From the sequence record PX393108.1: a stretch of 64,000 nt of DNA; one strand, 5' to 3'. The stretch comes from a phage. A program made the translations under genes and the position numbers. How positions within the stretch are numbered: position 1 is the first letter of the stretch; every line of letters starts with the position of its first letter. Below the pieces are notes generated by a model. The model was not told the DNA's origin. It saw only the letters and a list, made by a program, of their open reading frames with translations, and did no database searches. Below are positions 20,473 to 21,505 of the stretch, piece by piece.

Positions 20473-20548
20473 CTCACTTATAATTGGTCGAGGCAGTAGG
20501 GATCGAACCTACGACCTAGGACTTAGAAGGTCCTTGCTCTTCCTTCTG
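20473..20548 (-). tRNA. tRNA-Arg (anticodon UCU)
   Basis: Cloverleaf folded by hand: anticodon loop CTTCTAA, T-arm GTAGG-TTCGATC-CCTAC, CCA encoded. Confidence 0.85.
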
Positions 20549-20552
20549 AGCT

Positions 20553-20628
20553 ATGCCCCGTAATTGGGGTGACCGATGGGAGTCGAACCCATGACTACGA
20601 GAATCACAATCTCGAGTTCTACCAACTG
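20553..20628 (-). tRNA. tRNA-His (anticodon GUG), discriminator C73, no encoded G-1
   Basis: Anticodon stem-loop CGAGATTGTGATTCTCG; 3' end CCACCCCA like E. coli tRNA-His. Confidence 0.8.
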
Positions 20629-20753
20629 AACTACGGCCACATTAATACCTACTCCAACAATCAAGATGTCTTCACACGAAATTAAGAGAAGAGTGATCAG
20701 TTCAACCCTATAATCGCGTCAAGTAGATATTAATGTGACAGTTGTCACAAATT

Positions 20754-20828
20754 TGGCGGACGTGATAGGATTCGAACCTATAACCAATCGCTTAACAGGC
20801 GATCGCTCTGCCATTGAGCTACACATCC
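20754..20828 (-). tRNA. tRNA-Asn (anticodon GUU)
   Basis: Anticodon loop CTGTTAA; T-arm ATAGG-TTCGAAT-CCTAT; CCA encoded. Confidence 0.8.
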
Positions 20829-20832
20829 AAAT

Positions 20833-20919
20833 TGGTGGGGAGTGATGGAGTCGAACCACCCGAGTCGCAATGACAATGGATTTACAGTCCACACCGCTAC
20901 CTCTACGGGATAACTCCCC
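20833..20919 (-). tRNA. tRNA-Tyr (anticodon GUA), long variable arm
   Basis: 87 nt; anticodon loop CTGTAAA; discriminator A; CCA encoded. Confidence 0.8.
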
Positions 20920-20932
20920 TTAATTCTTAATT

Positions 20933-21007
20933 TGGTGGCCCTGGGTGGAATTGAACCACCATCTGGCGATTATGAGTCGCTTGCTTGAACCTTCCAGCTA
21001 CAGGGCC
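20933..21007 (-). tRNA. tRNA-Ile (anticodon CAU, Ile2/lysidine type; Met not excluded)
   Basis: Anticodon arm GCGACTCATAATCGC identical to E. coli tRNA-Ile2 as recalled; CCA encoded. Confidence 0.75.
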
Positions 21008-21008
21008 T

Positions 21009-21085
21009 TGGTGCTGATTGACGGAATCGAACCGCCGACCTTCTCATTACAAGTGAGTTGCTCTACCTACTGAGCTAAATCAGCA
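21009..21085 (-). tRNA. tRNA-Thr (anticodon UGU)
   Basis: Anticodon loop CTTGTAA; perfect 7 bp acceptor stem; 1 nt from Ile tRNA. Confidence 0.85.
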
Positions 21086-21089
21086 AAAC

Positions 21090-21179
21090 TGGCGGAGGCG
21101 ATAGGATTTGAACCTATGAGTCGCCGGAGCGACTGCCGGTTTTCAAGACCGGTGCATTAAACCACTCTGCCACGCCTCC
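21090..21179 (-). tRNA. tRNA-Ser (anticodon UGA), type II
   Basis: 90 nt; anticodon loop TCTTGAAAA region; long variable arm. Confidence 0.85.
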
Positions 21180-21181
21180 AG

Positions 21182-21255
21182 TCTCCATACAAGGATTTGA
21201 ACCTTGGACCTCCTGATCCCAAATCAGGCGCTCTACCAAACTGAGCTACACGGAG
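21182..21255 (-). tRNA. tRNA-Pro (anticodon UGG), CCA not encoded
   Basis: Anticodon loop TTTGGGA; 3' end lacks CCA; 2 nt from tRNA-Ser. Confidence 0.8.
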
Positions 21256-21265
21256 TAAATTAAAT

Positions 21266-21339
21266 TGGAGCGGATAATGAGAATCGAACTCACATCATCA
21301 GATTGGAAGTCTGAGGTAATACCATTATACGATATCCGC
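21266..21339 (-). tRNA. tRNA-Gly (anticodon UCC)
   Basis: Anticodon loop CTTCCAA; CCA encoded. Confidence 0.85.
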
Positions 21340-21344
21340 AAATT

Positions 21345-21431
21345 TGGTGCGAGAAGTGGGACTCGAACCCACAAGGAAATCATTCCGCAGCATTTTAAGT
21401 GCTGTGCCTTTACCAATTTGACCATTCTCGC
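21345..21431 (-). tRNA. tRNA-Leu (anticodon UAA), type II
   Basis: 87 nt; anticodon loop CTTAAAA; long variable arm. Confidence 0.85.
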
Positions 21432-21432
21432 G

Positions 21433-21505
21433 CTGGGAATAAAGGACTCGAACCTTTGCATCCTGGAATCAAAATCCAGTGCCTTACCAACTTGGCTAAT
21501 TCCCA
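21433..21505 (-). tRNA. tRNA-Gln (anticodon UUG), starts with U1, CCA not fully encoded
   Basis: Anticodon loop TTTTGAT; abuts tRNA-Leu as a dimeric precursor. Confidence 0.85.

Follow-up and report, generated by a model that had tools for sequence, protein, structure and literature searches.

Within the 64,000-nucleotide (nt) phage sequence PX393108.1, the whole of which is referred to here as the window (64 kb), eleven transfer RNA (tRNA) genes form a cluster that we take, with a probability of roughly 80%, to be the operon from which a T-even (Tequatrovirus) coliphage makes its tRNAs and stable RNAs, present in an uninterrupted form that lacks segB, and processed and evolved along the lines set out below. 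The eleven-tRNA cluster is the known long form of the T4-like coliphage tRNA operon and is not new. Across the whole window ARAGORN called exactly eleven tRNA genes, which all lie on the minus strand from 20485 to 21505, and placed them in the transcription order Gln(UUG), Leu(UAA), Gly(UCC), Pro(UGG), Ser(UGA), Thr(UGU), CAU, Tyr(GUA), Asn(GUU), His(GUG) and Arg(UCU), which is identical in order and anticodons to what had been derived earlier by hand folding (the original prediction). The three genes on which that prediction turned, Tyr, Asn and His, are all found by ARAGORN with the claimed anticodons and are supported by Rfam. All eleven have the cloverleaf and unambiguous anticodon of canonical bacterial-type tRNAs; ten score 59-74 bits against RF00005 (Rfam), and for tRNA-Tyr, a type II tRNA with a long arm, the winner within the Rfam clan is tRNA-Sec at 34 bits. 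Escherichia phage UGKSEcP2 and other Tequatrovirus genomes match the eleven-tRNA region at 99.4% identity, the best-matching record (99.4% identical) annotates the same eleven tRNAs, and an identical cluster is annotated in AR1-like and other Tequatrovirus genomes, among them UGKSEcP2. In total, 974 phage records match the region and 242 contain at least 80% of it.

The position of the cluster also identifies it as the T-even operon, since it lies between trna.x/ipI/57B and rnaD/rnaC/e on the expected strand, in the same genomic place and on the same strand as the operon of T4 (NC_000866, 71.0-72.5 kb; eight tRNAs, segB, rnaC and rnaD). The number of tRNA genes given for T4 in the original prediction, eight, was verified at this homologous locus. 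The two phages share the upstream trna.2-4, ip (ipI) and 57B genes, the downstream rnaD and rnaC, and six orthologous tRNA genes (89-100% identity), with Leu (87/87), Gly, Pro and Ser 100% identical, Thr identical at 73/76 positions and Gln at 65/73. The predicted retention of a T4-like core therefore holds for gene order, but not for every gene in it, because the CAU (47/72) and Arg (48/70) genes are not the T4 genes; judged from their sequences, these two are different alleles from those of T4, and this is what is new in the comparison. Homology to T4 is present from upstream of tRNA-Gln, is lost within the CAU gene at about its nt 12 and is regained at rnaD. This puts the breakpoints at about 20995, inside the CAU tRNA gene, and at 20116, and up to the first of them identity is near-perfect. 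A break within the conserved 5' end of the CAU gene suggests that modules were exchanged by recombination at this point, and, together with the non-orthology of CAU and Arg, indicates that the distal half of the cluster is an alternative module and not T4 plus three inserted genes. By alignment of the two loci, Ile-segB-Arg of T4 stands where this phage has CAU-Tyr-Asn-leader-His-Arg-open reading frame (ORF), so Tyr, Asn, a structured leader element, His and a 116-amino-acid ORF are present here and absent from T4, and segB is missing here.

As the CAU and Arg alleles differ from those of T4, the operon can be assigned to an alternative, T2L-type allele. Phages T2L, RB1 and RB3 lack segB and have the same additional CAU ('Met'), Tyr, Asn and Arg genes in place of the T4 Ile-segB-Arg segment; in addition, the cut that SegB prefers is in the 3' portion of tRNA-Asn, at a site with the core GGTTCRANTCC, and about 1250 base pairs (bp) that contain the CAU, Tyr, Asn and Arg genes are excluded by SegB homing (Brok-Volchanskaya et al., 2008; PMC2330249). 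The window matches this pattern in that CAU, Tyr, Asn and Arg are present, segB is absent and the SegB core is found in tRNA-Asn. The assignment is based on gene content, on the SegB core and on the published description of T2L, which is known here from that description and which lists two ORFs (trna.1 and trna.2) without mentioning tRNA-His (PMC2330249). The eight-gene cluster of T4 would then be derived, SegB homing having replaced a CAU-Tyr-Asn-His-Arg module. Free-standing homing endonuclease genes also replace or adjoin tRNA genes in relatives of this phage, within tRNA clusters that apart from this are identical or related (Table 1), which makes the eleven-gene form the uninterrupted version of a homing-endonuclease hotspot. 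The endonuclease genes of AR1, a51 and CW742 differ from each other, being segD-like, HNH and one labelled only 'homing endonuclease'.

The CAU tRNA is labelled Met by ARAGORN and in most GenBank records, and had been called Ile(CAU) in the original prediction. Its best full-length match in E. coli is an annotated tRNA-Ile (62/76 identities) that is present in 5424 of 5426 genomes, and the two share an identical 20-nt anticodon stem-loop as well as G1-C5, so Ile(CAU) is the better label. With a CAU anticodon and an acceptor stem and anticodon arm that are Ile2-like and not Met-like, the sequence supports a tRNA of the lysidine-dependent, AUA-reading Ile type. C4-G69 and C5-G68 are determinants for TilS, the enzyme that would presumably convert C34 of this tRNA to lysidine. 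The T4-type CAU allele is found in T6 (50/77 identities to the gene analyzed here), so two CAU alleles circulate within the genus. Lysidine at position 34 (k2C34) has been found on a CAU tRNA of a vibriophage (PMC13191261).

The arrangement of the genes is informative about how the transcript may be processed. By the ARAGORN ends, the spacers are 0 nt for Gln-Leu and 1 nt each for Pro-Ser and Thr-CAU, as had been noted from the sequence, and the same pairs abut in T4; the abutting Gln-Leu pair is consistent with a dimeric precursor. The predicted lack of an encoded CCA in tRNA-Gln and tRNA-Pro was seen at the gene ends with their flanks, where tRNA-Gln finishes in ...CCCA-G-C with Leu directly after it and tRNA-Pro in ...GGAG-A-C-u followed by Ser, and the remaining nine of the eleven genes do encode CCA. 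T4 likewise has no CCA in its Gln and Pro genes, but its Ser gene, which is followed by UAA, and its Ile gene also lack the CCA that Ser and the CAU tRNA encode here (21090-21092 and 20933-20935), so that the host CCA-adding enzyme is needed only for Gln and Pro in this phage. The operon would be transcribed from the minus strand as one polycistronic precursor, Gln-Leu-Gly-Pro-Ser-Thr-Ile2(CAU)-Tyr-Asn-(structured leader)-His-Arg and then the small ORF, rnaD and rnaC, and would be matured by host enzymes, with RNase P acting at the 5' ends and exonucleases and the CCA-adding enzyme completing Gln and Pro. Folding gave no comparable long helix 5' of tRNA-Gln (z-score -0.75), leaving a likeness to the T4 RNase III site upstream of Gln unsupported.

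To place the tRNA content in the context of translational demand, codon usage in 77 ORFs of the window (18,514 codons) was compared with that of 41 ORFs from a 50-kb piece of the E. coli chromosome, a small sample that makes the ratios rough. The A-ending codons of the eight 'core' tRNAs are 1.5-10 times enriched in the AT-rich phage relative to this host sample (AGA 10x, AUA 5.5x, ACA 3.4x, UCA 2.8x, GGA 2.8x, CCA 2.4x, UUA 1.8x and CAA 1.5x). Among the amino acids served by the additional tRNAs, Tyr is used 1.55 times (UAU 2.1x) and Asn 1.45 times (AAU 2.4x) as often as in the host, but His is rarer in the phage (0.67x; CAU 0.91x, CAC 0.41x). Codon demand, which the original prediction had proposed to examine for all three, thus explains Tyr and Asn and does not explain His.

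For Tyr and Asn, a second function is suggested by work on phage defence. The nuclease system Septu cuts tRNA-Tyr, infection is rescued by overexpression or SegB-driven amplification of the T6 tRNA-Tyr gene, and T4, which has no tRNA-Tyr, cannot escape Septu (Chihara et al., 2026; PMC13096335). The tRNA-Tyr encoded here is identical to the annotated T6 tRNA-Tyr at 85 of 87 positions, including the entire variable arm, and is thus nearly the same molecule as one that acts as a supply tRNA against Septu and retron Eco7 (PMC13096335; PMC11555353). In T6, segB lies beside the Tyr gene and drives its amplification; there is no segB here, so this escape route is unavailable in cis. The case for tRNA-Asn is one of analogy to T5 only: tRNA-Asn(GUU) is a secondary target of the PARIS nuclease AriB, and T5 tRNA-Asn contributes to rescue (bioRxiv 10.1101/2025.02.04.636281). 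The 3' strand of the anticodon stem of the phage tRNA-Asn reads U36-A-A-G-C-G, versus UAAUC/C in E. coli (the slash marking the AriB cut), with substitutions at positions 39 and 41, and a bearing of these changes on escape from PARIS is suggestive only. By inference from T6 Tyr and T5 Asn, both tRNAs would also replace host tRNAs that are cut by defence nucleases.

A feature that the original prediction did not mention lies between tRNA-Asn and tRNA-His, where a 113-nt element (20641-20753, minus strand) is found that is present in 356 phage records and almost never annotated. It is called a tRNA by ARAGORN in none of the phages examined, it gave no Rfam match in a search of 19500-22500 at E<=1, it is absent from the T4 locus, and it is not homologous to T4 rnaC or rnaD. 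The element and tRNA-His are jointly conserved (83-92%) in Jiaodavirus and Karamvirus. In A5-4, a Vequintavirinae phage, it is flanked by tRNA-Gly and tRNA-Gln, and in STP4-a it stands before tRNA-Asn, with only a GTGG remnant of His left, so the element is not tied to tRNA-His. A search of viral contigs with its invariant 15-mer returned 27 stretches, of which 4 are real copies, all close to known ones.

Comparative folding (alifold) predicts for this element a 19-bp outer stem that encloses inner hairpins, with double changes at 11 of 33 pairs, and the copy in the window has a minimum free energy (MFE) of -38 kcal/mol (z-score -3.4). Across nine distinct copies, 94.4% of the cells of the 19-bp stem are paired, versus 36-55% when one strand is slid; in five stem pairs both partners change, and the covariation score exceeds that of all 500 shuffles, the register of the stem having been fitted, which favours pairing and not covariation. 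The stem is rich in G-U pairs (UG in five of the nine sequences at two positions), and since each of them would turn into an A-C mismatch in the opposite strand, the structure is specific to RNA of the tRNA strand. The last five bases of its 3' arm are nt 1-5 of tRNA-His, and in the MFE fold of the full precursor (-60.9 kcal/mol) these nucleotides are predicted to pair with the leader at P=1.0. Enforcing the tRNA-His cloverleaf costs 6 kcal/mol and leaves a 14-bp helix that ends at A:U-1, with the freed GUCAC pairing with an upstream GUGAC; in this model, GUGAC as an alternative partner of the 5' arm would make a conformational switch possible. At the start of the leader (20735-20748, minus strand) there is a mini-hairpin, GUGAC-AACU-GUCAC, whose GUGAC resembles the tRNA-His 5' end GUGGC.

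These properties bear on what the element does. RNase III takes part in T4 tRNA maturation (PMC4810235), and the 19-bp stem provides, on the tRNA strand of the precursor, uninterrupted double-stranded RNA of about two turns. We therefore think it best to read the leader as a processing helix: the 5' strand of tRNA-His would first be held in the conserved 19-bp helix, which would most likely serve as an RNase III-type processing site separating the His-Arg end of the precursor, and processing may in addition set the leader free as a stable, roughly 100-nt hairpin RNA, like RNA III of T5.

It is possible, though we consider it doubtful, that the 113-nt element is instead a gene in its own right, specifying a stable RNA of about 100 nt like T5 RNA III and RNA I or T4 rnaC and rnaD, and that its pairing with tRNA-His is a by-product of tight packing. 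In T5 (NC_005859, 30.2-30.5 kb), annotated stable RNAs of 106-107 nt occupy exactly the same position, directly before tRNA-His, where the tRNA-like RNA1 is found as well, and RNA III (106 nt) has a 12-bp terminal stem and abuts that tRNA; both phage clusters thus place a structured RNA of roughly 100 nt immediately 5' of tRNA-His. The element here fills a tRNA-sized slot and moves independently of tRNA-His, as in A5-4 (before Gln) and STP4-a (before Asn, with no His), and one form, variant A, shows hardly any change in its interior between three Tevenvirinae genera and a Vequintavirinae phage. However, in other variants (CW742/ABTNLPp2/STP4-a, L110, L131 and L153) the interior is wholly replaced while compensatory changes keep the outer stem, so that the helix and not the interior looks to be the selected part. 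There is also no similarity of sequence to rnaC or rnaD of T4 or to the T5 RNAs (no local similarity to RNA III or RNA I, and 42 matches in 148 columns and 53 in 126 in global alignments), and the T5 terminal stem stops before the tRNA, whereas the stem here includes nt 1-5 of tRNA-His.

The tRNA-His that follows this leader has G1-C72, C73 and an encoded CCA, and the nucleotide 5' of G1 is U (the complement of A at 20641). This agrees with the prediction that it has C73 and no encoded G at position -1 (G-1). The E. coli homologue, identical at 61 of 76 positions, has G at -1. A register that takes the first G as G-1 was rejected, both because the 5' acceptor strand would then have 6 nt and the 3' tail four bases, and because the alignment with E. 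coli tRNA-His fixes the register. Among the identity elements of tRNA-His, C73 and the GUG anticodon are therefore present, and invariant in the alignment, but the G-1 that pairs with C73 is replaced by U. The importance attached to this in the original prediction for how histidyl-tRNA synthetase (HisRS) recognizes the tRNA is borne out by the published rule, as histidylation in vitro falls to about 1% once G-1 is missing (PMC3245924).

The distribution of this trait was surveyed with a pattern scan of viral contigs for a tRNA-His-like D-arm and anticodon, which gave at least 109 genes and at least 56 distinct sequences. Among the matches listed, 48 of 56 distinct tRNA-His genes have G-1 (39 of them as U-2 G-1) and the other eight have A-2 U-1; when only those genes among these matches are considered that have three or more further tRNAs no more than 1.5 kb away, 22 have G-1 and seven U-1. 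The U-1 genes belong to Tevenvirinae (Tequatro-, Jiaoda-, Karam- and Gelderlandvirus), to two Aeh1-like contigs of 221-225 kb, and to a third set (the L050 group) in which a single U separates His from the CCA of the preceding tRNA. U-1 is present in all close and several distant relatives of the phage analyzed here. The unrelated phage T5, which infects the same host, also has U at -1 with C73-CCA, as U-2 U-1 versus the A-2 U-1 found here. Most of the phage tRNA-His genes listed thus encode G-1, and U-1 is a minority, lineage-specific and selectively maintained state. No published description of a G-1-less phage tRNA-His turned up in literature searches.

What becomes of such a tRNA can be proposed from the rules of its processing. 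RNase P can leave G-1 in place by an unusual cut, for which both the G-1:C73 pair and a U immediately upstream of the cleavage site are required (PMC3245924; PMC9976931). Here U directly precedes G1 and no -1:73 pair can form, so RNase P is expected to cut at +1, and the product would be a G-1-less tRNA-His that is poorly charged by E. coli HisRS. The G-1-less tRNA-His may nevertheless be usable, as the analogy with T5 suggests: histidine-accepting tRNAs coded by T5 are listed from classical charging and hybridisation work (table in PMC4810235), and a note in the T5 record describes its tRNA-His with a changed anticodon as an effective amber suppressor, so a U-1 tRNA-His can work on the ribosome. 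Some α-Proteobacteria, some protists and C. elegans mitochondria likewise encode no -1 nucleotide opposite position 73, but these systems have A73 and/or a co-evolved, G-1-independent HisRS (PMC9976931); the phage tRNA-His keeps C73 and must rely on the G-1-dependent enterobacterial enzyme.

The leader and the U-1 state may be connected. Predicted capture of the tRNA 5' end by its leader is commoner when the gene has U-1 (median 0.99) than when it has G-1 (0.14), and in the contigs of 221-225 kb an unrelated, shorter hairpin also pairs with nt 1-6 of His. As there are only about three independent U-1 lineages, the association is only suggestive. We offer as a speculation, held with low confidence, that virulent phages of enterobacteria (Tevenvirinae, Aeh1-like phages and T5) have evolved a G-1-less C73 tRNA-His that, together with the leader helix in the T-even phages, represents either an undescribed route of maturation and identity or a variant that evades or absorbs a host nuclease which reads the G-1 end. 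Candidates for such a route could include RNase III-gated release, a mature 5' end that retains U-1, and efficient use of the G-1-less tRNA by a G-1-dependent HisRS.

We consider it unlikely that the main role of the G-1-less tRNA-His is something other than that of an adaptor, whether it is made in large amounts, with little or no charging, so that a host nuclease or toxin that hits tRNA-His or GUN tRNAs meets a substitute, decoy or sponge, or is itself shielded from such an enzyme by the absence of G-1. Tyr, Asn and His are three of the four GUN (queuosine) tRNAs, the targets of colicin E5. A role of this kind could account for a gene that codon demand leaves unexplained, whose product would be poorly charged if it follows the in vitro effect of losing G-1 (about 1% histidylation), and whose U-1 state has been kept in several lineages of virulent enterobacterial phages, T5 among them; probable AriB cleavage products have also been seen for tRNA-His(GUG) (bioRxiv 10.1101/2025.02.04.636281). 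However, the cloverleaf, C73, GUG and CCA are all conserved, as expected of a charged, working tRNA-His, the accepting and suppressor activities of the T5 tRNA also speak for an adaptor, and no defence system is known that targets tRNA-His primarily.

It is very improbable that tRNA-His is a decaying pseudogene and the preceding spacer junk or a DNA-level feature such as a palindrome, a promoter or a plus-strand ORF of 15-24 codons. Apart from the missing G-1, such a reading can cite a TTGACG hexamer within the element and a short plus-strand ORF (M-SSHEIKRRVISSTL and then a stop) that is readable in four lineages, from different ATGs. Against it, in ten distinct U-1 tRNA-His sequences 99.5% of the cells pair and 11 of 21 pairs have compensatory changes, with controls far lower, so the U-1 genes are not decaying; this covariation rules out a pseudogene. 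The palindrome and micro-ORF are ruled out by the strand-specific G-U pattern, which marks an RNA and not a DNA structure, and by the lack of translation signals, as the ORF lacks a ribosome-binding site, runs opposite to every gene around it and has its end shifted by an indel. The hexamer is followed by no -10 element and is not conserved (TCAACG, CTGACG), and a promoter scan stayed at chance.

Several points weigh against our reading of the locus as a T-even operon processed in the manner proposed. The distal module is likened to that of T2L by its description and not by sequence identity, the host codon reference is small, and promoter and terminator scans were at or below chance level, with none that stood out. 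The mature 5' end and charging of tRNA-His, the lysidine of the CAU tRNA, cleavage by RNase III and accumulation of the leader are all inferred steps. Annotation of T5 counts the U at -1 within a 78-nt tRNA-His, so RNase P may leave U-1 on. In addition, the U-1 lineage of the L050 group has no leader helix, so that helix and U-1 are not strictly coupled, and predicted capture by the leader exceeds 0.5 in 18 of 55 G-1 genes as well. The single 'terminator' match was rejected as the 5' hairpin of rnaD on the wrong strand.

Downstream of tRNA-Arg, the presence of rnaD and rnaC (Table 1) extends the stable-RNA cluster beyond 20473-21505, the span given in the original prediction. The two ORFs that flank the cluster have no match in Pfam and fall in PHROGs families of unknown function only. 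In a Karamvirus (L005), a member of phrog_3355 with phrog_2290 after it likewise lies beside the tRNA cluster, so the phrog_3355 family appears to travel with tRNA clusters. Within tRNA-Thr (21009-21084), C27 and G43 of T4 are both replaced by A, so that by manual numbering the top pair of the anticodon stem becomes an A-A mismatch.

Table 1. Features of the tRNA and stable-RNA operon in the window, and related features at loci of other phages (positions within the locus named).
Feature	Position	Strand	Remarks
tRNA-Gln(UUG)	21432..21505	-	No encoded CCA, only C74; abuts tRNA-Leu; 65/73 vs T4 Gln; ARAGORN, Rfam
tRNA-Leu(UAA)	21345..21431	-	CCA encoded; 87/87 vs T4; ARAGORN, Rfam
tRNA-Gly(UCC)	21266..21339	-	CCA encoded; 74/74 vs T4; ARAGORN, Rfam
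tRNA-Pro(UGG)	21181..21255	-	No encoded CCA (A73-C then U); 1 nt before tRNA-Ser; 74/74 vs T4; ARAGORN, Rfam
tRNA-Ser(UGA), type II	21090..21179	-	CCA encoded, vs UAA after G73 in T4; 100% identical to T4 gene
tRNA-Thr(UGU)	21009..21084	-	CCA encoded; 73/76 vs T4; ARAGORN, Rfam
tRNA CAU, tRNA-Ile2 type	20933..21007	-	CCA encoded; other allele than T4/T6 CAU gene
tRNA-Tyr(GUA), type II	20833..20919	-	A73, CCA encoded; 85/87 vs T6 tRNA-Tyr
tRNA-Asn(GUU)	20754..20828	-	G73, CCA encoded; T-arm carries GGTTCGAATCC, core of SegB recognition site
Structured RNA element, tRNA-His leader	20641..20753	-	Not a tRNA by ARAGORN/Rfam; unannotated
Outer stem of leader, 5' arm (GUCACAUUAAUAUCUACUU)	20721..20739	-	Its GUCAC mimics tRNA-His 3' acceptor strand
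Outer stem of leader, 3' arm (GAGUAGGUAUUAAU + GUGGC)	20636..20654	-	Final five bases are tRNA-His nt 1-5
tRNA-His(GUG)	20565..20640	-	G1-C72, C73, CCA encoded, U at -1
tRNA-Arg(UCU)	20485..20560	-	CCA encoded; 48/70 vs T4 tRNA-Arg; ARAGORN, Rfam
116-amino-acid ORF (phrog_3355, family of unknown function)	20116..20466	-	Between tRNA-Arg and rnaD; absent there in T4
rnaD (species 2 stable RNA) homologue	20000..20116	-	94% identical to T4
rnaC (species 1 stable RNA) homologue	19855..19993	-	98% identical to T4
Other copies of the leader element	L003 1034-1132; L004 1578-1673; L005 1580-1700; L033 1201-1300		
Free-standing homing endonuclease gene	L158 (AR1) 1187-1837		Replaces tRNA-Pro
Free-standing homing endonuclease gene	L159 (a51) 1436-2044		Replaces tRNA-Gln
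Free-standing homing endonuclease gene	L035 (CW742) 448-1062		Beside tRNA-His
T5 tRNA-His, RNA III (106 nt), RNA I (107 nt), tRNA-like RNA1	L161 (T5) 10207-10645		

The cluster itself adds nothing new to what is known of T-even phages, and the additional tRNAs agree with present thinking, in which the tRNAs of phages suit the codon usage of the phage and also stand in for host tRNAs that defence nucleases destroy. The remaining interest lies in the conserved G-1-less tRNA-His and in the unannotated leader helix. A covarying helix that sits unannotated between tRNA genes in 356 phage genomes is a candidate for a processing signal or a small RNA that annotation has missed, and a G-1-less tRNA-His that works with E. 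coli HisRS would contradict the textbook identity rule, yet this gene has been kept in hundreds of phage genomes.

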